Positions 8,725 through 19,294 of a stretch of 29,580 nt of DNA are shown piece after piece (the stretch's first letter is position 1; each line of letters starts with the position of its first letter). The position numbers and the translations under genes are program-made. The DNA comes from an uncultured Gammaproteobacteria bacterium (GTDB lineage Bacteria > Patescibacteriota > Microgenomatia > UBA8517), in NCBI GenBank assembly GCA_964366385.1, contig CAYITS010000001.1, positions 1-29,580 of the forward strand, given 5' to 3'. The notes beneath the pieces are model-generated. The model was not told the DNA's origin. It made no database searches and saw nothing but the letters and a program-made list of their open reading frames with translations.

Positions 8725-8798
8725 GACCCGTTAGCAGAGTGGTCATGCAACGGTCTGCAAAACCGTGTACGAGGGTTCGATTCCCTCACGGGTCTCCA
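8725..8798 (+). tRNA. tRNA-Cys(GCA), intact, CCA encoded
   Basis: GACCCGT/ACGGGTC acceptor, GCA/TGC D-stem, ACGGT-CTGCAAA-ACCGT anticodon arm, GAGGG-TTCGATT-CCCTC T-arm, U73, CCA. Confidence 0.97.
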
Positions 8799-9727: not shown

Positions 9728-9766
9728 TTGACAAAGAGTCAAATGTATTGTATCATTATGTACAAT
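9728..9766 (+). promoter_or_regulatory. brnTA promoter with overlapping palindromic operator
   Basis: TTGACA-N17-TATCAT. The inverted repeat ATTGTA-N8-TACAAT (9747-9766) covers the -10 box. Confidence 0.7.
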
Positions 9767-9769
9767 GTC

Positions 9770-10057
9770 ATGGATGGGTTTGATTGGGATTGGGCAAACA
9801 TCGAAAAGAATAAGATAAAGCACGGGGTAGAGCCAAACGAATGTGAAGAGATATTTTTCGAAAGACCGTTGGTTACCCTAAAGGACATCAAACATTCCCA
9901 AACAGAAAGAAGGTATAAAGCTCTTGGAATTACAAAAAAAGGAAGAAAATTACACGTCACTTTTATAATCAGAAAGAACAAAATTAGGGTAATTTCGGTA
10001 AGGAACCAAAGCCGAAAAGAAAGGAAATTATATGAAAAAAGCTATCAAAACAGGTAA
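9770..10057 (+). CDS. BrnT family toxin
   Basis: FDWDWANIEKNKIKHGV...ECEEIF...HSQTERRYKALG...[17 protein letters not shown]. Start set at the ATG at 9770 because the track start lies in the -35 box. Confidence 0.88.
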   Translation: MDGFDWDWANIEKNKIKHGVEPNECEEIFFERPLVTLKDIKHSQTERRYKALGITKKGRKLHVTFIIRKNKIRVISVRNQSRKERKLYEKSYQNR

Positions 10058-10331
10058 AAAAAGCTTGCCAACAATTCCAAAGTTCAAAAACGAGGACGAG
10101 GAAAGGGATTTTTGGGCAACGCATGATTTAACTGACTATTTACACATTTTCAAACCTGTTAAATTAGACTTTTCGAAACTAAAACCGTCTACCAAGCCCG
10201 TAACGGTCCGCTTACCCCTGTCTTTGGTTGAAGATCTAAAGATTATGGCCAATAAACGCGATGTCCCCTACCAATCTCTGATGAAAATACTTCTGGCTGA
10301 AAAAATCCGCGAAGAGTTTCCTTCCGTTTAG
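10032..10331 (+). CDS. BrnA/CopG-like antitoxin
   Basis: [22 protein letters not shown]...KPVTVRLP...[16 protein letters not shown]; overlaps the toxin 3' end. Confidence 0.85.
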
Positions 10332-11956
10332 TAATCCATTCCACCCATTCCCGGTGAAGTCTGGGGTTTGTTTTCAGGCTTTTCCAATTCTGTTATTAGT
10401 CCTTCAGTTGTTAAAACCATCATCGCCACCGAGGCCGCGTTTTGCAGCGCCGATCGCGTAACTTTCAAAGGATCCAAAATCCCAAAACTGGTCATTGATC
10501 CAAATTCACCCGTTAAAGCGTTAAAACCATAATCACTGTTTTTCACTTCTTCAATTTTCTTTAAGACGTATCCATCATCTTCTCCTGAGTTTTTAGCTAA
10601 CCATCTGATTGGCTGCTCGAGCGCAGACCAGACTATATCAATTCCTACTTTTTCGTCTCCGCCGGCATCAATCCTTATTGTTTTAAGTGCTTCTCTGGCT
10701 TTAAGAAGGGCGACACCGCCACCGGGTAATGTTCCCTCTTCAATTGCTGCCTTCGTTGCCCCCACCGCGTCATTTACTCTTTCTTTTTTCTCGTTAAGCT
10801 CAATTTCCGTAGCCGCCCCAACATTAATTTGAGCCACACCGCCTGCGAGCTTTGCCAGTCTCTCTTCCAATTTCTCTTTATCAAAATCGGAATCGGTTTC
10901 AGTTATTTGCCTCTTAAGAAGAGTTATTCTGGAATTAATCGCTTTTTTCTCTCCTTTTCCTCCAATTATCCTTGCGTTATCTTTATCCGCCCAAACTTTA
11001 TCGGCCTGACCCAAATCGGTCATTTCGATTGATTCAAAAGTCTTTCCGGTGTCCTCGGAGATTACCGTTCCCCCCGTTAAAACCGCCAGGTCATCGAGCA
11101 TTTCCTTGCGTCTGTCTCCAAATCCCGGAGCCTTAATCGCCAAAATATTAAAAGTTCCGCGGAGCTTATTGACAACCAAGGTTGCCAAAGCCTCGCCTTC
11201 GATCTCATCGGCGACAATGACCAAGTTTTTAGAAACCTTTACAAATTTTTCCAAAAAAGGAAGAAGGTCTTGTATTGCGGTAATTTTTTTGTCCGTTAAA
11301 AGAAGATAGGCATTCTCAATTTCCGCTTCCATTCTTTCCGGGTTCGTAACAAAATAAGGCGAGACATAGCCCCTGTCAAACTCCATTCCTTCCTTGTATT
11401 CAATGTCTATCGTTAGCCCCTTTCCCTCTTCAACTGTCACTACCCCGTCTCTTCCTACCTTATCCAAAGCTTCCGCGATCTTGGCGCCAATTTCTTCGTC
11501 TCCGGCAGAAATTGTGGCCACCTGAGTGATTCCCTCTTTGTTTTTAATAGGTTTCGCGGTTTTTTTAAGTTCATCAATCACTGCCGCAACTGCCTTTTCG
11601 ATACCTTTTTTGACTACCATCGGATTTGCTCCCGCCGTAATATTTTTCATTCCGATTTGAGTCATAACCTGAGCAAGAAGAGTTGCCGTTGTCGTCCCGT
11701 CACCGGCAACATCATTGGTTTTTGAAGCCGCCTCTTTTACAAGCTGGGCTCCCATATTTTCAAAAGGGTCGGGTAAATCAATCTCTTTGGCGACAGAAAC
11801 GCCGTCATGAACGATGCTTGGAGCACCCCACTTTTTGTCTAAGGCAATATTTCTTCCCTTCGGCCCCAGGGTGGTAACAACCGCTTTGGCAACAATATCA
11901 ATCCCTTTTAATAGAGACTGTCTTGCGTCATCTGAAAATCTTAGTTGTTTTGCCAT
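10328..11956 (-). CDS. groEL: Chaperonin GroEL
   Basis: [46 protein letters not shown] and a C-terminal GMGGMDY. Confidence 0.99.
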
Positions 11957-11979
11957 GGTTCGACTTTGCTCACCACAAG

Positions 11980-12276
11980 TTAGTTCGTTTCGACAGCGAG
12001 AATGTCCTCAAACTTGGAAAAAAGATATTCTTTCCCGCCGATTTTAACTTCACTTCCCCCCCACTTTTTGTATATTACAACATCCCCAACTTTAACCGGA
12101 GATTTTTTCTTAGCTCCCGAATCTGTAATCTCATCGGCTCCTATCGCCAATACTTTTCCCTTTTGGGGTTTCTCTCCTGCCGAATCCGGAAGATAAATAC
12201 CCGAAGCCGTTTTTGTTTCAGCCTCCAAGGGTTCAACAAGAAGATATCCGGCAGTCGGTTTAAGATTAATTTTCAT
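11980..12276 (-). CDS. groES: Co-chaperonin GroES
   Basis: [25 protein letters not shown]...VKVGDVV...EDILAV. Confidence 0.98.
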
Positions 12277-12282
12277 ATTATA

Positions 12283-12309
12283 TTAGCAACTACTAACGGC
12301 GAGTGCCAT
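12283..12309 (-). promoter_or_regulatory. CIRCE-like (HrcA) operator
   Basis: TTAGCAACT-N9-GAGTGCCAT versus consensus TTAGCACTC-N9-GAGTGCTAA, lying between the promoter and the groES start. Confidence 0.7.
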
Positions 12310-12337
12310 TCTACACAACGACCCTTAGTTGTGTCAA
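12308..12337 (-). promoter_or_regulatory. groESL promoter
   Basis: Minus strand TTGACA-N18-TAGAAT; the -10 box abuts the CIRCE-like element. Confidence 0.65.
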
Positions 12338-12343
12338 GAGGTA
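12332..12343 (+). repeat. 12-bp direct repeat, left boundary of the pyr operon
   Basis: TGTCAAGAGGTA, identical to 17015-17026 and 5 nt from the pyrD stop. Confidence 0.8.
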
Positions 12344-12348
12344 GTCTT

Positions 12349-13437
12349 TTAGATGGCCGTTCCAACCATCTCGCTAATGTTATCCAAACCCTCTCTTTCT
12401 ATATAGACCACAAGGTCTTTATTAATGGTTTTAATCATCCCCGGACCTTCATAAACCAAACCTGTATAAACCTGAACAAGCGATGCTCCTACTTGCATTT
12501 TTCTAACAACATCTTCAGCGTTAAACACTCCACCCACACCAATGATAGGCAGCGTACCTTTAGAAATTTTATATACAGTCCGAATTGTATCTAAGGACTT
12601 TTGAACCAACGGCCTCCCTGAAAGGCCGCCTCTTTTGTTTTTAAAAGTGCTGGTTAGCCCCTCTCTCAAAACTGTGGTATTCGTGGCAATAATTCCATTT
12701 ACACCAAACTCCATAGCTGTATCGACAATATCACCAATTTCTCGTTCCGAATTCTCAAAATCAGGTGCAATTTTTAGAAGTAGAGGTTTCACTATTTGCC
12801 GTTCATCCATTTCCTTTCTAACCCGACCGATCAACTCTCTTAGGGCTTCTTTGCCTTGGAGCTCACGTAGTCTAGCTGTGTTTGGAGAAGAAACATTAAT
12901 AACCAGATAATCCGCAAAAGCTGCTAAATTTATCAAAACTTCTACATAATCATCAGCTCCCCTGCCTTCATCAACACTTCTCTTATTAGCTCCGGCATTA
13001 ACTCCGAGAACCATTTTTCTTTCTCGAGTATTTGCTAAATTATCAAGGACTTCCTCCATACCCAAACCTGGAAAGCCCATTCGATTAATTAGAGCTTTAT
13101 CTTCACCAAGTCTAAAAATACGGGGTCTTTCACTTCCTCTCTGGAATTTTGGAGTAACAGTTCCTATTTCAACATGACCAAATCCCAAAGCACCTAGTGC
13201 CATCGGCGCCACAGCGTTTTTATCAAATCCTGCCGCAAGACCGAGAGGATTTTCAAAATGTAGTCCCCATGTAGTTACATTCAACCTAGGATCGCGACAA
13301 GAATAAATCCTTTCCAAAAACTCTCTTATAAAACGATATTTTTCTGCTATCTTAAGAAGTTGAATTGTTGTGTCGTGGGTAGATTCGGGGTCAAAATGGG
13401 AAACTACCGGAAAGACGACCTCCTTATATAAAGACAT
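12349..13437 (-). CDS. pyrD: Dihydroorotate dehydrogenase, class 2 (quinone-type)
   Basis: NPLGLAAGFDKN, EIGTVTP, RPRIFRL, INRMGF, INVSSPNT, LLKIAPD, ATNTT, GGLSG, IIGVGG, LVQVYTGLVYEGP. Confidence 0.95.
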   Translation of the reverse strand: MSLYKEVVFPVVSHFDPESTHDTTIQLLKIAEKYRFIREFLERIYSCRDPRLNVTTWGLHFENPLGLAAGFDKNAVAPMALGALGFGHVEIGTVTPKFQRGSERPRIFRLGEDKALINRMGFPGLGMEEVLDNLANTRERKMVLGVNAGANKRSVDEGRGADDYVEVLINLAAFADYLVINVSSPNTARLRELQGKEALRELIGRVRKEMDERQIVKPLLLKIAPDFENSEREIGDIVDTAMEFGVNGIIATNTTVLREGLTSTFKNKRGGLSGRPLVQKSLDTIRTVYKISKGTLPIIGVGGVFNAEDVVRKMQVGASLVQVYTGLVYEGPGMIKTINKDLVVYIEREGLDNISEMVGTAI

Positions 13438-13453
13438 ATATTTTAGACAAAAA

Positions 13454-14521
13454 CTAATCTGGAAATATTACCTTTCCCCTAGGTCCTTTAACTTCTTCTC
13501 CATCAAACACTACTTCTCCCCTAAGAACCACTTTATTTATTCGTCCGGTTACCCTCATTCCCTCAAATGGAGTCCAACCGCATTTTGTTCTTAACTTCAA
13601 TGCATCAATTATGTAACTTTCCTTTATATCAACCTCGGCATAGGTTTCCGGCTGCTTAATAATCCCAAATATTTTTCTTGGATTTGTTGAGGTTAGTTTG
13701 ACAACTTGGTCTAAAGTCAGCTTGTCTTCTGCAACCGCTGTTAAAAGAAGGGGGAGAGCCGTCTCGAGGCCGGGGACACCGAATGGAGGTTTTTCAGATA
13801 ATTTCTCTTCTTTAGTGTGAGGGGCATGATCTGTTGCTATCATGTCAATTACTCCTAATTTCAGATTTTCCCAAAGAGCAAGCCTATCCATTTCAGTTTT
13901 CAAAGAAGGTTTCATTACACCAAAAGGTCCTAAAGCTTGCGCATCCGCTTCTGTAAGAAATAAATGGTGTGGGGTTACTTCACAGGTAACAGGTAAACCT
14001 TCTTCTTTTGCTTCCCTTGCCATTTCTACATCTTCTTTTGTGGCTACATGAGCAATATGGAGCCTTCTATTATTAAGCCTGGCAAGTGTAATCGCTGTTG
14101 CCAAAGTTTCTCCTTCAGCATGAACGATGATGGGTTTTTCTCTTGGCCACCTAGAAAAAACTCGATTTAATTCATTTTTGTCTTCCATCAATAAAGTTCC
14201 TGTTGTATGGTTCATATAAATTTTCAATCCAAATATTTGATCTTTCACCTCCTCAAAATACTCAAATCCTTGGGATGTTGCTCCAAAATGAAAGCCTATA
14301 TCGCAATAAACTCTATTTTCGGCCAGTACAATTTTTCTTTGTAAGGCTCCTGGAGAAATTGTCGGTTCAGGATTATTCGGCATATCCAAAACGGTTGAAA
14401 AACCCCCAGCTATAGCAGCCATTGTTCCTGTTTCAAAATCTTCTTTATGAGTCGCTCCTGGTTCGCGAAGGTGGACATGAGGATCGACTAAACCAGGCAA
14501 CTTTATATATTCTGCACTCAT
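13454..14521 (-). CDS. pyrC: Dihydroorotase (resembles the CAD-type DHO domain)
   Basis: LPGLVDPHVHLREPG, AAIAGG, DMPN, KIYMN, HAE, CEVTPHHL, TDHAPH, PGLETALP, GWTPFEG. Confidence 0.93.
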   Translation of the reverse strand: MSAEYIKLPGLVDPHVHLREPGATHKEDFETGTMAAIAGGFSTVLDMPNNPEPTISPGALQRKIVLAENRVYCDIGFHFGATSQGFEYFEEVKDQIFGLKIYMNHTTGTLLMEDKNELNRVFSRWPREKPIIVHAEGETLATAITLARLNNRRLHIAHVATKEDVEMAREAKEEGLPVTCEVTPHHLFLTEADAQALGPFGVMKPSLKTEMDRLALWENLKLGVIDMIATDHAPHTKEEKLSEKPPFGVPGLETALPLLLTAVAEDKLTLDQVVKLTSTNPRKIFGIIKQPETYAEVDIKESYIIDALKLRTKCGWTPFEGMRVTGRINKVVLRGEVVFDGEEVKGPRGKVIFPD

Positions 14522-15210
14522 TGTTGCTGTTTAAGTAAAGCTAGAAAATTGTTCAAATCCTGCAATCCTTGATCAATCCCAGCTCGATCCTTAATACCAA
14601 TTTGACCCACCCTTATATAAAAATCCAGCATTTTTGTCATAGTCATGGCCGAATGCAGCTTCAATGACTTTTCGGCCAACTCCTCCCTTCCGCCTTGTTC
14701 ACGATCAACTAGCACAACGACATCATTAACGACTAAACCCTTTTGGATAAGAACTTTAGCAGCTTCTAGTTTTGAGTCTGCTCTGGTAACCAAATCATCT
14801 ACCAGTAAGACGACTTTTCCTTTATCTGAATTCAAAAAACCGTCAATCTTTGCCCCGGTGCCATGTGCTTTCGCATCTGTTCTTGGTGTTATCATTCCAA
14901 TTCCCAATCTGTCTGATAAAGAGGCAACTAATGGAGTTGCTGCAGTAGGAATATCAGCCAACAAATCGAATTTTAAAGGACTGACTAACTCTTGGTAAAC
15001 ATTTACAGCCGCTAATTTGGCTTGTGGAAATCTTCGAAGCATTCTTAAATCAATATAAATAGGGGATAATGGTGCTTCGGGATGCAGGTCATGAAGTTTT
15101 AATTTAAAAGCGCCGAACTTTATGGCACCGATATCAAAGAGTTCTTTAGACAAAGTTTCTTGTACTCCGGTTAAACCTTCGAGACGATCATTTGATTTTA
15201 ATCTCTCCAT
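14518..15210 (-). CDS. pyrE: Orotate phosphoribosyltransferase
   Basis: FKLK...SPIYIDLR, KAHGTG, VLLVDDLVTRADS (PRPP loop), VLVDREQGG. Confidence 0.92.
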   Translation of the reverse strand: MERLKSNDRLEGLTGVQETLSKELFDIGAIKFGAFKLKLHDLHPEAPLSPIYIDLRMLRRFPQAKLAAVNVYQELVSPLKFDLLADIPTAATPLVASLSDRLGIGMITPRTDAKAHGTGAKIDGFLNSDKGKVVLLVDDLVTRADSKLEAAKVLIQKGLVVNDVVVLVDREQGGREELAEKSLKLHSAMTMTKMLDFYIRVGQIGIKDRAGIDQGLQDLNNFLALLKQQQ

Positions 15211-15917
15211 ATTTTACTTGTCATTTGCTCCGCCGCCTCGTGTATATCAACCGCTTTGTAGATAGCTCTTCCCACAATTGCATGCCATTTATTTCCTGCC
15301 GCTTTTGCAAAGTCAGAAATCTCTCCTCCCTGGGTTATAAAGCCGGGAGCATAAAGTGTAAAATTATCTTTACCTAAGATATTTTCAAATAATGTTCTGT
15401 AATGATCAACAAATTCAACCTTGTTTCCGGGAACTACAAAATCTGTAACTCCTTCTTGTGCCGCGATAGTAAAAATTCTTTCAGGTGCTTCATCTGCTAG
15501 AGATCCGCCTTCACTCCATAAAAATTTTGGCTGTGTCATATGAGCTCCTACCAGAACTCCTAATTGTTTATCTTGGCAAGCTTTTATCCAGTCTTTCTCT
15601 GTAGCCTCACCGGCAAAAGGAAAAAGAATAACTGCATCAACTCCTGACTGTTTACACACTTTTGCAAATTCGGCACCCATTGCAGGTATATCGTTTCCGG
15701 CTTTCTGGTGGTCATAAATAACAGGAAGATCAGTGTGGTCTTTTACTGTACTTACAACTCTGGCTAGGCCTTCTTCCAAAGCAAGCGATAAACCAACCTT
15801 GTATCCTCCCACGCCTTCGACTAGACATGTTTCCTCGACCAACTTGGAGAGTTTTGACGTTTCAACATCCGCAGCTACTACCACGCTTCTGTCAAAACCA
15901 ATTATTCTTTCAACCAT
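15198..15917 (-). CDS. pyrF: Orotidine-5'-phosphate decarboxylase with a variant catalytic motif
   Basis: VVVAADV, GYKVG, DHQKAGNDIP, VVPG, PGFITQGG, IVGRAIY, plus operon context. Confidence 0.85.
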   Translation of the reverse strand: MVERIIGFDRSVVVAADVETSKLSKLVEETCLVEGVGGYKVGLSLALEEGLARVVSTVKDHTDLPVIYDHQKAGNDIPAMGAEFAKVCKQSGVDAVILFPFAGEATEKDWIKACQDKQLGVLVGAHMTQPKFLWSEGGSLADEAPERIFTIAAQEGVTDFVVPGNKVEFVDHYRTLFENILGKDNFTLYAPGFITQGGEISDFAKAAGNKWHAIVGRAIYKAVDIHEAAEQMTSKIWRD

Positions 15918-15925
15918 AAATTTTT

Positions 15926-16906
15926 TTAGGCCGGCAATTTCCCCAATACTCCCGCCAATAACGTCATTCTTACATAAAGCCCGTTTTCCATTTGTCGAAA
16001 ATAGGCTGCGTTTTTGGTGTAACTATCAACAGATTTGGAAATTTCTCCAACTCTGGGCAGTGGATGCATTATCGTCAGTGATTCTTTTCCAGCACGTAGA
16101 GTTTCCGGCGTAACAACGTAAAGCCCTTTTACGGATTCATAAACAGCAGTGTCCTCAAACCTTTCCTTCTGGACCCGTGTAACATAAAGCACGTCCGTAT
16201 CGGACAATACTTCGGACAAACTCTCATGTTCCGACTGTTGTACCCCTTTAGCTTCAAGCTCTTGTATAATCGTAGACGGCATTCTTAAAATTTCAGGTGA
16301 AACATAATTTAGCCTAACTTGATAAAGAGAAAGAAGTCTGGCTAACGAATGAACGGTTCTGCCGTGCTTCATATCCCCGAGCATGGTAACCGCGAGTCCA
16401 TCTAGCATTCCCTGTTCTTTTCTGATCGTTACGTAATCAAGAAGCGCCTGGGTTGGATGTTCACCAACACCGTCGCCGGCATTAATTAAAGGTATTGAAA
16501 CGGCTTCGGCGGCAATGGCTGCCGAACCCATTTCCGGATGGCGTAAAACTATAACGTCCGCGTATTGCTCAAGCGTTCGTACGGTATCTTCTAAATCCTC
16601 GCCCTTGGTAACCGATGAGTATTTAACTTCGTTTATAGAGATAACACTTCCGCCCAGTCTTTCCATAGCGGCGGTAAACGAGGATGAGGTTCGCGTTGAG
16701 GGTTCATAAAATAGGTTTGCCAGTATTTTCTGACTGAGAAAATCTGCTTTATAACCCTTCTTTGCTATTTCTGCCATTTCAAGGCTCCAACTAAAAATGT
16801 GGTCGAGAGTTTGCGCATCGAATTGCCAAACAGAGAGAATATCCTTTCCTTTTAAATTTCCATTCAAGTGCTCGGCAGAATGATTAAGAAAATCTGGTCG
16901 TTCCAT
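15926..16906 (-). CDS. pyrB: Aspartate carbamoyltransferase catalytic subunit
   Basis: [72 protein letters not shown]. Confidence 0.97.
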
Positions 16907-16914
16907 TTTATCTC

Positions 16915-16937
16915 AAAAAAAAGAGCCTTACGGCTCT
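16915..16937 (-). terminator. Intrinsic terminator / attenuator upstream of pyrB
   Basis: AGAGCC-GTAA-GGCTCT followed by TTTTTTT, ending 8 nt before the pyrB ATG. Confidence 0.85.
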
Positions 16938-16972
16938 AGTAAAACTTTGGTCCCAAAAAAATCAGGCGGCAT
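16928..16972 (-). CDS. Putative pyr leader peptide, MPPDFFGTKVLLEP (14 aa)
   Basis: AGGAG-N6-ATG; U7 and U4 tracts within the ORF; the TAA stop lies in the terminator loop. Confidence 0.6.
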   Translation of the reverse strand: MPPDFFGTKVLLEP

Positions 16973-16991
16973 GCTTGGCTCCTGAGAAATT

Positions 16992-17020
16992 AGCCTAGTG
17001 AAAAATCTTGGGGTTGTCAA
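16992..17020 (-). promoter_or_regulatory. pyr operon promoter
   Basis: TTGACA-N17-TAGGCT; the -35 box contains the TGA stop of the upstream gene. Confidence 0.65.
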
Positions 17021-17026
17021 GAGGTA
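17015..17026 (+). repeat. 12-bp direct repeat, right boundary of the pyr operon
   Basis: TGTCAAGAGGTA, identical to 12332-12343. Confidence 0.8.
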
Positions 17027-17883
17027 AGTTGTCGAAGCACCACTTCGCCGCAATCGTGTGGATGAAAAATGGCACGGTGATTGCCAACAACTTCACGGGT
17101 AATTTTTTTCTTCATGTACAAATATTGTAATTTGAAAGCTAATTTTTCCAAAAAGAAGAACTTTTTGGGTTCTTTGGTTCTTTGGTTCTTTGGTTCTTTA
17201 GTCCTTTTAACCGCATTTGGCCAAAACTCTCCTATCCACCTATTTTCATAAATAAACTTCTCATACGTTTTGTTTTTACTGATCAGGGTTTTTATCTGAG
17301 CTATTTCGTGCGCAGTATAGGAATTTCTATCTCTTAACGGCCAAGACAAAGCTTTCTCGTCCAGCCATATGTTCATACAAAGCTTGTCCTTCTGGTTTTT
17401 GTCTTTAGGTTTTCTTATTTTTGTTCCGAAAAGCTTCAGAAAGACATAAGCAATAATCCTTGTGGTCCAAAGAGCACCGTTTGTGGTTACGATCAAAAGA
17501 TCTATATCGGAATCGTCTGCAGCGTTTTCCATAGCCAAAGATCCGGTTATTGCAACCATTTTTATGGTTGGAACAATTGAAAGCATGTCCGCCGCTTTCT
17601 TGGCTATCTGAATTTTCCTGGCAGAAACTCTTTTTTTTAGAAGTCTTTTATAAACGACACCCTCTTTTCCTTCCAGAAAACACAATCCGTTTTTCTGCTC
17701 AACTACACACTCATCCTTGATGACAACTTCTACTTTACTGCCTGCCGCCCATTTAACAAGTTCACTTGCCGTGAGCGGGTAATCAAAAACATTGTGATAA
17801 AGCAGAGATTTCAACTCACTGTTGCCTAAAAGAAGTTTCTTTTCTTTATATTCCCCGACATCGATATTGTATAAAAAAGGCAT
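17017..17883 (-). CDS. Hypothetical protein with a Pol-beta-type nucleotidyltransferase domain
   Basis: VAITGSLA...DDSDIDLLIV (GS..DxD) after an N-terminal FDYPLT segment. Start uncertain. Confidence 0.7.
   Translation of the reverse strand: MPFLYNIDVGEYKEKKLLLGNSELKSLLYHNVFDYPLTASELVKWAAGSKVEVVIKDECVVEQKNGLCFLEGKEGVVYKRLLKKRVSARKIQIAKKAADMLSIVPTIKMVAITGSLAMENAADDSDIDLLIVTTNGALWTTRIIAYVFLKLFGTKIRKPKDKNQKDKLCMNIWLDEKALSWPLRDRNSYTAHEIAQIKTLISKNKTYEKFIYENRWIGEFWPNAVKRTKEPKNQRTKEPKKFFFLEKLAFKLQYLYMKKKITREVVGNHRAIFHPHDCGEVVLRQLTS
17162..17201 (+). repeat. 8-nt tandem repeat inside the nucleotidyltransferase ORF
   Basis: tttttggg (ttctttgg)x3 ttctttag, encoding TKEPKNQRTKEPK. Confidence 0.85.
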
Positions 17884-17893
17884 CTCTTAAAAA

Positions 17894-19252
17894 TTATTTT
17901 ACAGTTAGTCCATATTGACCTAAAACCTGAGTTATCCCCTGTTCCACCGGCTCTAAAGCTTTCACTGCGGGGGTTCCTGAGTTTACGGCATTGACGGCAT
18001 CTTCAAAATATTTACTTATAAGGGAGTTAATACCCGTAGGTCCGTCAAAAGTACGAGAAGCAAGATACCAACTCTGAGCATACGGAGCTCTGGTAATAAT
18101 CGAGCTTAAGACCGAATGATCTTTTAACAGATCGGCCATATCAACCCTCGGGTATGGTTCACCGAACATCCTTTGCCGAGACGAGTTGGTGTACATTTTA
18201 GTCAGAGACTCTTTGGTAGAAATAAACTTCAGAAAATCCCAAGCCGCAGACTTATTCTTGCTTCTTGCCCACACTCCCTCTGCCCAATAGGTTGCATAGG
18301 AAATGTCCGAGGTTGTTGCTCCGGCCTTAGGCAGTTGCGGAAGAGGCACGGTTCTAAACTTCAAGGAAGGGTTTTGTTCCATAATATTAAGGGCTCTCCA
18401 AGAGGGGCCAAAATACATCGCCAGCCTTCCTCCGGCAAAAGCCGCTGTTGAGGAGGGCAGGGTGTTATCCCAAACGCCGTCAACAGAAGAAAAAACGGTA
18501 TAAAAAGTCAAAGCATCTTCGGCAAGCTTCCCTGTCGGTTTTGTCATATCCACACCGTTTTGCAGCATCATCAGGCCTAAAATTTCCTGCCAGTGGTCAA
18601 CGTTTTCGGTTCTTCCTAAAGCAACACCCGATTGAATTATCGCCCCCTGTTCGTCCTTCTTGGTCAGTTCAATTGCAAGCCGTCTTAACTCATCCCACGT
18701 CGTTGGAGGATTTTTGGCCGCAAGAGCAAATATGTCTTCATTTATATAGAGGGTCAGGGCATCGTATTCCAAAGGAATCCCCACAAAACCGGTGCCGCTG
18801 GAAAGATCCGAAGACACGACCGGATAATAATCCTTGGCAAAATCGGAGGCATTCATTACCGATACCGGAACATAATCAAGATCACCTTTAAACATGGGGA
18901 CCCAGCTATTATGAAATCTAAAAATGTCGGGCCCTTCCCCTTTTGCCATAGCATTAGTCAATCTCTCCCGGTAATCCTGTTTGGATTGATTAATATATTT
19001 GATTTTTACCTTTGGGTTTTTTTGTTCGTATTCAGATATCAAGGGTGAAATAACGGATTCATCTTCCCAAAGCCCCCACCAAATTATTTCCGCCGAACCC
19101 GCTGTCTTTTTGGATAACGATTTAAACAGTACGACCAAAAAGATGGCCAGCAGAACAACCGCGCCAACGACAAAAATTAATTTTAGCGGTGCTTTTACCG
19201 GCGTGTTTACTTGAACTTGCGGTTGTGTTTGTGGAAAAACCTGTTCTTCCAT
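17894..19252 (-). CDS. Extracellular solute-binding protein (family 1, sugar-type), TM-anchored
   Basis: WWGLWE, GEGPDIF, GIPLEYDALTLYINEDIF, PPTTWDEL, FAGGRLAMYFG, YWAEGVW. Start set at MEEQVF (19252). Confidence 0.85.
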   Translation of the reverse strand: MEEQVFPQTQPQVQVNTPVKAPLKLIFVVGAVVLLAIFLVVLFKSLSKKTAGSAEIIWWGLWEDESVISPLISEYEQKNPKVKIKYINQSKQDYRERLTNAMAKGEGPDIFRFHNSWVPMFKGDLDYVPVSVMNASDFAKDYYPVVSSDLSSGTGFVGIPLEYDALTLYINEDIFALAAKNPPTTWDELRRLAIELTKKDEQGAIIQSGVALGRTENVDHWQEILGLMMLQNGVDMTKPTGKLAEDALTFYTVFSSVDGVWDNTLPSSTAAFAGGRLAMYFGPSWRALNIMEQNPSLKFRTVPLPQLPKAGATTSDISYATYWAEGVWARSKNKSAAWDFLKFISTKESLTKMYTNSSRQRMFGEPYPRVDMADLLKDHSVLSSIITRAPYAQSWYLASRTFDGPTGINSLISKYFEDAVNAVNSGTPAVKALEPVEQGITQVLGQYGLTVK

Positions 19253-19294
19253 AAAATTAAAATCAAAAATATAATATAAACTATACCTATTCAA

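Follow-up and report, generated by a model that had tools for sequence, protein, structure and literature searches.

We examined a pyrimidine biosynthesis operon in a 29,580-nucleotide stretch of DNA (contig CAYITS010000001.1 of assembly GCA_964366385.1; hereafter, the window) from G000, a groundwater bacterium with a small genome (616,564 bp in 70 contigs, 88.6% complete). The operon, pyrB-pyrF-pyrE-pyrC-pyrD, is situated between a nucleotidyltransferase (NTase) gene and the chaperonin genes groES and groEL, and is bounded by exact 12-bp direct repeats. Comparison with related genomes indicates that it is a lineage-specific insertion between NTase and groES that duplicated a short overlap of the two. 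Taken as a whole, the locus is likely to have arisen by insertion of a complete pyr transcription unit at the point where the NTase stop codon overlaps the groES −35 box, with duplication of that overlap.

The repeat reads TGTCAAGAGGTA on the plus strand and occurs at 12332-12343 and 17015-17026, 4683 bp apart. The window holds no third match with up to one mismatch, and these two are the only exact copies in the genome. On the minus strand, the orientation of all genes discussed here, it reads TACCTCTTGACA (in a longer form, GACT(T)ACCTCTTGACA). Copy A (17026-17015) closes the NTase gene in the frame ...CTT ACC TCT TGA CA, in which TGA (17019-17017) is the stop codon. The overlapping TTGACA (17020-17015) is the −35 box of the pyr promoter, 17 nt upstream of a −10-like TAGGCT (16997-16992). 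Copy B (12332-12343) starts 5 nt past the pyrD stop codon (12351-12349) and consists of TACCTC followed by the groES −35 box TTGACA (12337-12332), which lies 18 nt upstream of the −10 box TAGAAT (12313-12308). The groES promoter matched 11 of 12 positions in a consensus scan; the same scan did not call the pyr promoter, whose −10 box matches at 3 of 6 positions only. Together with its −10 box, groES carries an inverted repeat, GGCACTC-N9-AGTTGCTAA (about 12307-12283; the whole block spans 12283-12313, minus strand), and a TAGCACTC-N9-GAATGCTAA block is kept in the groES regions of relatives. It may be a CIRCE/HrcA-type element, for which the consensus is TTAGCACTC-N9-GAGTGCTAA between −10 box and start codon. 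The initial annotation, made from the window alone, had described both repeat copies, their spacing, the 5-nt distance from pyrD and the double identity of the minus-strand repeat as last NTase codons with TGA stop and as −35 box, and all of this was borne out.

Relatives lack the interruption. We searched 40 genomes from five families of one class and found groES in all 40 and the NTase gene in 24. Of these 24 genomes, 22 have the NTase gene upstream of groES, with contig and strand in common; in the other two, G034 and G008, it is on a separate contig. None of the 22 carries the pyr operon between the two genes. Measured between tblastn match ends, the gap is below 500 bp in 19 of the 22, including 17 with no more than 260 bp; it is larger in G026 (779 bp), G023 (1,211 bp) and G014 (8,281 bp). 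An empty site with NTase adjoining groES, as the initial annotation had predicted, was thus found in relatives of five families, and the NTase gene is the ancestral neighbour of groES on its upstream side.

The overlap itself is also found in relatives. In 7 of 29 groES loci of relatives (G007, G003, G020, G015, G024, G006 and G022; open frame of at least 274 codons), the NTase stop codon is the TGA inside the groES −35 box TTGACA. G003 reads GACTTACCTCTTGACAC here, equal to copy A of G000 over the 13-mer TTACCTCTTGACA and to copy B over TACCTCTTGACAC. MAFFT placed site A of G000 against the NTase 3′ ends of relatives, which encode Arg-Leu-Thr/Ser/Gly/Ala-Ser-stop, and site B against their promoter, −10 box, CIRCE-like element and groES start; the two sites overlap on an invariant CTCTTGACA. 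Removing one repeat together with the operon joins the NTase gene to the groESL promoter, as had been proposed, and recreates the arrangement of relatives.

The gap between NTase and groES holds independent insertions in other lineages. G014 carries 8.3 kb with about 10 open reading frames (ORFs) without Pfam hits and a TrmB-like regulator, G023 two AAA_14 fragments (1.2 kb), G026 a 188-amino-acid ORF (0.8 kb) and G004 a 115-amino-acid ORF. At the groES promoter of G026 the sequence is still TTACCTCTTGACA, and the NTase gene ends TAC-TTGACT, the latter possibly a decayed second copy.

Assembly error does not explain the arrangement in G000, since independently assembled Logan contigs run across each junction. 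X2 record 10 matches 11891-13887 without a difference, and X1 record 7 spans 16410-17411 and differs once. Single contigs of a diverged relative, sampled in another study (run X5, records 25 and 28), carry groEL-groES-pyrD and pyrB-leader-NTase; this shared gene order implies that the insertion predates the split of this relative from G000. The two differ at 48 positions over 1,347 nt in pyrD, and the X5 relative has a replaced leader segment as well as 30 extra letters immediately past the pyrD stop codon. In record 25, the extra letters before the repeat (window 12349-12353) are bounded by a 5-nt overlap; they point to a deletion of ~35 bp in G000 or an insertion in the relative, at the right junction. 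No other genome among the 125 of the family (G000 included) was seen with pyr next to groES; only the X5 relative shares it.

Deletion between direct repeats would, by logic alone, regenerate an exact empty site, so the operon could in principle be ancestral at this position and have been lost repeatedly from relatives. Many independent precise deletions would then be required, to account for 22 empty sites in five families. G000 is moreover an ordinary member of its family, f1, with a groEL 71-85% identical to those of others, and homologous operons occupy a different locus, between rny and hup, in three genera. Logan contigs of four runs contained no joint from ~12332 to ~17026 that skips the operon. 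This last point is weak, since contigs drop rare variants, and for that reason the contig result says nothing on excision. We regard ancestral presence with repeated loss as extremely improbable. The initial annotation had named two findings that would count against an insertion, an NTase gene away from groES in relatives lacking the operon and vertical inheritance of the operon at this site, and we encountered neither.

To follow the operon elsewhere, we surveyed pyrB in the 125 family genomes. The G000 type occurs in 5 of them and in three different genomic contexts; the four homologues outside G000 (in G100, G021, G085 and G063) are 83-86% identical to that of the window, and four further genomes have a distant pyrB (41-46%). 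In G085, G021 and G063, which represent three genera, the operon lies between rny and hup in the order recA-recX-rny-[pyr]-hup-ABC, and G100 has a lone pyrB beside a dus gene. Ancestrally, the gap between rny and hup had no insert: in 28 of 30 loci hup lies downstream of rny, with less than 200 bp between them in 22, G000 itself has them 64 bp apart on contig C6, and the site is empty in G084, a congener of G085. Presence of this pyrB type varies within genera (in g64, G085 has it and G084 does not; in g75, comprising G099-G106, only G100 of the eight does). The rny–hup gap is 0.6-1.2 kb larger in G003, G006, G014, G007, G010 and G004 (L136, L141, L144, L145, L149 and L150), and in G085 it holds a 23S_rRNA_IVP-family gene beside the pyr operon (L130 2800-3204). 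This gap may be a second recurrent insertion site.

The pyr operons at rny–hup also show where the pyr promoter came from. In G085, G021 and G063 it consists of TTGACA followed by A, a 17-18-nt spacer and a −10 box ATACTn. The suggestion that the inserted operon borrows the host −35 hexamer is therefore not supported: homologous operons possess their own TTGACA at the same register, and the operon had no need of the host's. The base that follows the hexamer is A in copy A of G000, as in pyr promoters, and C in copy B and in G003, which places the left junction within or just after the hexamer. A left junction there, combined with a native pyr −35 box, makes TTGACA a microhomology between insert and target. 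This microhomology comprises 6-7 nt, TTGACA(A), at the left junction; at the right junction it amounts to ~1-4 nt at most.

These junctions also set the extent of the duplication. Upstream of TTGACA, the native pyr promoters of G085, G021 and G063 differ from the repeat, so the TACCTC at copy B did not come with the incoming promoter. The duplication formally measures 12 bp, of which TACCTC (6 bp) is the only part attributable to the target without ambiguity. An insertion with target duplication, as initially annotated, thus stands for at least TACCTC; the hexamer is shared with the insert's own promoter. The accompanying caveat that only 6 of the 12 bases are independent evidence holds and can be sharpened: the six bases, TACCTC, are themselves ancestral NTase coding sequence (Leu-Thr-Ser-stop) rather than free sequence. 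By eye, the ancestor may have read GACTTACC as G003 does, in which case the duplication would have been 16 bp, followed by small indels in each copy.

We propose the following course of events. In the ancestor, the NTase gene would have ended ...CTT ACC TCT TGA, its TGA lying within the groES −35 box TTGACA. A 4.67-kb segment amounting to a full pyr transcription unit (−35 box, spacer, −10 box, terminator-bearing leader and pyrB-F-E-C-D) would have been inserted at this overlap. Its left junction would fall in the −35 hexamer common to insert and target, which served as microhomology, and its right junction 12 nt further upstream in the target, leaving TACCTCTTGACA on both sides. Copy A would preserve the NTase frame and stop codon while acting as the pyr −35 box, and copy B would preserve the groES promoter with its conserved upstream CCTC. 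Any insertion within the overlap would cost the cell either the NTase stop codon or the groES promoter, so selection would let through only those events that duplicated sequence. The copies may still be identical because selection holds one by coding and the other by promoter function. Our comparisons show the insertion, the overlap in the ancestor, the duplication of TACCTC or more, the native −35 box of the operon and the lack of mobility genes, whereas the mechanism is inferred: we favour illegitimate recombination without a recombinase, or template switching, at microhomologies.

The absence of mobile-element machinery at the locus fits this course. No integrase or transposase domain was present in any of the 27 window ORFs scanned against Pfam, so the description of the operon as an integrase-less island, with no recombinase or transposase in or beside it, was upheld. 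The sole Phage_integrase hit in G000 lies on contig C18, away from the operon. No terminal inverted repeat with arms at 12344 and 17014 occurs among the 25 longest of 172 inverted pairs. The single tRNA gene in the window (8725-8795) is ~3.5 kb off, beyond groEL, and is not the insertion target.

A classical target-site duplication would offer a different account of the same repeats. Here, a 12-bp staggered cut would have been made by a transposase or integrase that is either encoded at another place or has been lost, the inserted segment would have started just past its own −35 box, and pyr would use the host hexamer. The repeats are indeed exact and flush with the insert, the genome encodes the integrase-family protein on C18, and the gap has received other insertions in G014, G023, G026 and G004. 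Like the duplications made by transposons and insertion sequences, the G000 repeats are short, exact and immediately beside the insert, and 12 bp is at the upper end of the usual lengths of such duplications. Unlike those elements, the insert has no transposase or terminal inverted repeats, and its repeat includes the predicted functional −35 box of the insert itself. The lone integrase is most simply a Xer-type housekeeping enzyme. Since homologous operons have their own TTGACA at this register, an insert ending one base past the hexamer would be a coincidence. We consider an enzymatic target-site duplication unlikely.

The inserted segment probably came from an rny-[pyr]-hup locus, either of the G000 lineage itself or of a very close relative. 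On contig C6 of G000, the rny stop codon is immediately followed by the 8-mer AAAAGACT, which also spans the pyrD stop codon and the 5 nt after it (12350-12343); AAAGAC follows rny in no other of 30 rny-hup loci. With both strands counted, AAAAGACT occurs 62 times in 1.23 Mb. As a lead only, it would mean that the DNA which moved began at the pyr −35 box and ended a few bases inside an intergenic region of the rny–hup type from this lineage, through either internal relocation or import from a very close relative.

Alternatively, the locus could have been imported by homology-facilitated illegitimate recombination from a donor that already had pyr upstream of groES, with the right crossover in groES or groEL, the left at the −35 microhomology, and copy B representing the donor's groES promoter. 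The groESL genes are 71-85% identical across the family and could anchor such recombination, and a donor copy would look alike, because groES promoters keep the (A)CCTCTTGACA context also where no NTase gene precedes them. We find this quite improbable. Among the 125 family genomes, pyr was seen beside groES only in G000, joined by its close X5 relative; pyrB is elsewhere in G021, G085, G063 and G100 (context read) and in G014 (by contig); and the AAAAGACT match favours a source of the rny–hup type. An import would also merely shift the original insertion to another lineage.

The coding content of the operon is a mosaic of three modules. The first, leader-pyrB, is 79-86% identical among five genomes (G000, G100, G021, G085 and G063). 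In the second, pyrF and pyrE are 74% and 62% identical to an adjacent gene pair in G070, a genome without this pyrB type. No blastp match at E≤1e-3 links pyrF to the pyrF of G085, G021 or G063, and pyrE is 41% identical to that of G021, with no match at the same threshold to G085. Close homologues of pyrF (88-92%) occur in metagenomes; named ones belong to Candidatus Woesebacteria (74%), Blackburnbacteria (70%) and Shapirobacteria (64%). These are Microgenomates-type bacteria of the candidate phyla radiation, which suggests a like placement for G000. The third module comprises pyrC and pyrD, 70% and 64% identical to G085, with pyrD only 37% identical to G021. The closest PyrD, P0001, is 96% identical and lies on a 5,131-bp ENA contig; named homologues at 45-51% include Herpetosiphonaceae, a Parcubacteria bacterium and Brevibacillus. 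A pyrD search of genome contigs found no relative. An alignment of pyrD homologues yielded 80 metagenome loci at 38-46% identity, whose patterns were too generic and which we did not use. Searched by blastn against plasmids, the operon gave just two matches of 4% coverage, to Proteus records.

Several observations weigh against our interpretation and temper the confidence we place in it. Upstream of the groES −35 box, in 26 relatives with the full 10 nt available, C occupies position −1 in 25 and CCTC is present in 12, in 6 of those 12 without an overlapping NTase gene. Conservation of these bases across families, even without NTase overlap, suggests an extended −35 box or an upstream promoter element. 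In addition, CCTCTTGACA occurs 7 times among the 476 TTGACA hexamers of the genome, where ~1 is estimated from base composition. The identity of the two copies would thus reflect constraint in part, and not history alone. The junctions of the G085 operon at rny–hup, compared with the empty G084 site, show no comparable duplication, so the pattern is not general; this absence implies that the duplication in G000 reflects the overlap at its target, not a property of the operon. The compositional deviation of the operon is weak. In the composition check that the initial annotation had put forward, the G+C content at third codon positions is low in pyrD, pyrC, pyrE and pyrF (0.28-0.31, −1.7 to −2.2 standard deviations), but pyrB is typical (−0.3 standard deviations), and the tetranucleotide distance of the operon reaches only the 89.6th percentile of 144 genome windows. 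The identities of pyrB, pyrC and pyrD to G085 (64-85%) fall within the range of flanking housekeeping proteins (56-86%), which makes import and internal relocation inseparable. Ancient presence followed by relocation and transfer within the family likewise cannot be separated on these sequences. The AAAAGACT match was noticed post hoc. Finally, this is a single event without an enzyme signature, and an enzyme acting in trans with a 12-bp staggered cut would leave the same picture.

The same promoter constraint raises the question of whether anything was duplicated at all, since two promoters sharing an extended −35 consensus could flank the operon by chance. A bare 12-bp exact direct repeat is not unusual in the window, which contains 106 exact 12-mer pairs, equivalent to 67 maximal exact direct repeats of at least 12 bp. 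Genome-wide, six copies with one mismatch all have a C(C/T/A)nCTTGACA-like core, against 0 for a reversed control, and the abundance of CCTCTTGACA points the same way. What gives the repeat significance is that it is flush with both operon ends and equals the uninterrupted site of relatives. ACCTC precedes the groES −35 box in 6 of the 26 relatives and TACCTC in just 1, and native pyr promoters differ upstream of TTGACA. Copy A is NTase coding sequence, whose Leu-Thr/Ser-Ser-stop is kept in relatives, and synteny shows one ancestral copy becoming two. Chance similarity of two promoters is therefore, in our view, very unlikely, and insertion with duplication of the overlap remains the reading we prefer.

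The inserted segment (12344-17014, minus strand) contains the pyr promoter spacer, the leader, the five genes and 5 nt past the pyrD stop codon. All five enzymes of the uridine monophosphate (UMP) pathway are encoded as uninterrupted ORFs, identified with Pfam and NCBIfam, and pyrB, pyrC and pyrD score above NCBIfam cut-offs. The first gene, pyrB (15926-16906), encodes an aspartate carbamoyltransferase of 326 amino acids (Pfam OTCace_N and OTCace; TIGR00670, 347.7 bits, over the cut-off). It is followed by pyrF (15198-15917), a divergent type of orotidine monophosphate decarboxylase of 239 amino acids (Pfam OMPdecase; under NCBIfam cut-offs), and pyrE (14518-15210), a divergent orotate phosphoribosyltransferase of 230 amino acids (Pribosyltran at 19.8 bits, under the cut-off, with NCBIfam pyrE models likewise under cut-off). 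Dihydroorotase, encoded by pyrC (13454-14521), has 355 amino acids (Amidohydro_1; TIGR00857, 281.3 against a cut-off of 279.05). The last gene, pyrD (12349-13437), encodes a quinone-dependent (class 2) dihydroorotate dehydrogenase of 362 amino acids (DHO_dh; NF003652, 421 bits against a cut-off of 267), a membrane-associated type in a 0.6-Mb genome.

The flanking genes are likewise on the minus strand. The NTase gene (17017-17883; 288 amino acids, Pfam Polbeta/NTP_transf_2) matches no NCBIfam family and contains three tandem copies of an 8-nt unit, GGTTCTTT (17168-17191). It is preceded by a gene annotated as encoding a solute-binding protein (17894-19294). On the other side are groES (11980-12276; Pfam Cpn10) and groEL (10328-11956; Pfam Cpn60_TCP1), the latter convergent with a BrnT-toxin/CopG-antitoxin pair on the plus strand (9728-10331).

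Around the pathway, CTP synthase is encoded on contig C57. A source of carbamoyl phosphate was not found in G000: CPSase_L_D3, AA_kinase, ADI and a second carbamoyltransferase were all without a match, which in a genome 88.6% complete does not prove absence. Lack of an AA_kinase match means that neither carbamate kinase nor a PyrH-type UMP kinase was found. CPSase_L_D3 was found in none of G085, G021, G063, G100 and G084, and AA_kinase only in G085 and G063.

Between the −35 box and pyrB, the segment at 16907-17014 (minus strand) comprises the promoter spacer, the −10-like TAGGCT and a leader that carries an intrinsic-terminator hairpin (16937-16922) and T8 just before the pyrB ATG. This terminator, AGAGCC-GYAA-GGCTCT-T8, is invariant in four genera and ends 8-14 nt before the pyrB start codon (leaders at window 16907-16997 on the minus strand, L130 3294-3440, L039 5362-5506 and L131 2283-2424). 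G000 shares with G085, G021 and G063 a hairpin CAGGA...TCCTG followed by a U-run, and the leaders of the latter three have a further hairpin that G000 lacks. RNAalifold recovered two conserved hairpins from the four leaders, without compensatory changes, and the folding energy of the G000 leader is not unusual (z = −1.0). Rfam gave no match to the leader at gathering thresholds, and relaxing E to 10 returned sub-threshold hits only. We regard the conserved leader as a candidate pyrimidine-responsive attenuator. Pyr operons under attenuator control include the Bacillus PyrR type and the enterobacterial pyrBI operon with its uridine triphosphate (UTP)-sensitive leader. G000 resembles them in having an intrinsic terminator directly upstream of pyrB, and U-rich tracts. 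It differs from the Bacillus type in that its leader lacks an Rfam PyrR-site match; PyrR and a leader peptide were not looked for.

Set against known systems, the G000 insert shares with genomic islands a block of cargo present in one lineage at a site uninterrupted in relatives, an exact target-derived direct repeat on either side, and a patchy, mosaic character. Unlike such islands, which are integrase-mediated and often located at tRNA genes, it has no integrase, tRNA target or att-like extended repeat. Its repeat is an overlap of stop codon and −35 box, half of it common to the insert's own promoter, and its composition deviates weakly. Microhomology-mediated illegitimate integration is known, for example, from homology-facilitated illegitimate recombination in natural transformation and from replicative template switching. 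The G000 locus is similar in its junctions within microhomologies of 1-7 nt, in lacking enzyme-specific ends and in its short target duplication. It differs from those examples in being known from sequence, without an identified anchoring homologous arm. Another distinction is that its microhomology is a promoter element, so the promoter spacing of the incoming operon was preserved.

Bacteria with genomes this small usually rely on others for nucleotides. In the G000 lineage, a complete route from orotate to UMP, with its own predicted regulated promoter, was gained or relocated, and the patchy, mosaic distribution of the operon suggests that biosynthetic capacity is traded within the gene pool of the group. 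The junctions show how the operon came to be wedged between an overlapping stop codon and −35 box with neither damaged and no mobile-element machinery in sight. The locus also raises questions about the supply of carbamoyl phosphate, the electron acceptor of the quinone-dependent PyrD and the leader as a UTP-sensing attenuator. It is a clean and well-documented case of an operon inserted without a recombinase into a reduced genome, functionally neat, and demonstrates no new principle. A broader idea, which we hold to be speculative and rather unlikely, is that complete transcription units of reduced genomes relocate from one intergenic site to another with no dedicated recombinase, the near-identical −35 regions of strong promoters serving as microhomology. 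A cassette running from promoter to 3′ end would then land in register before another housekeeping promoter, such as that of hup or groES. Such promoter-guided shuffling would have left its mark in the three contexts in five genera, the three modules and the independent insertions at NTase–groES and rny–hup. If true, operon shuffling of this kind would let host-dependent bacteria of the candidate phyla radiation regain biosynthetic capacity.

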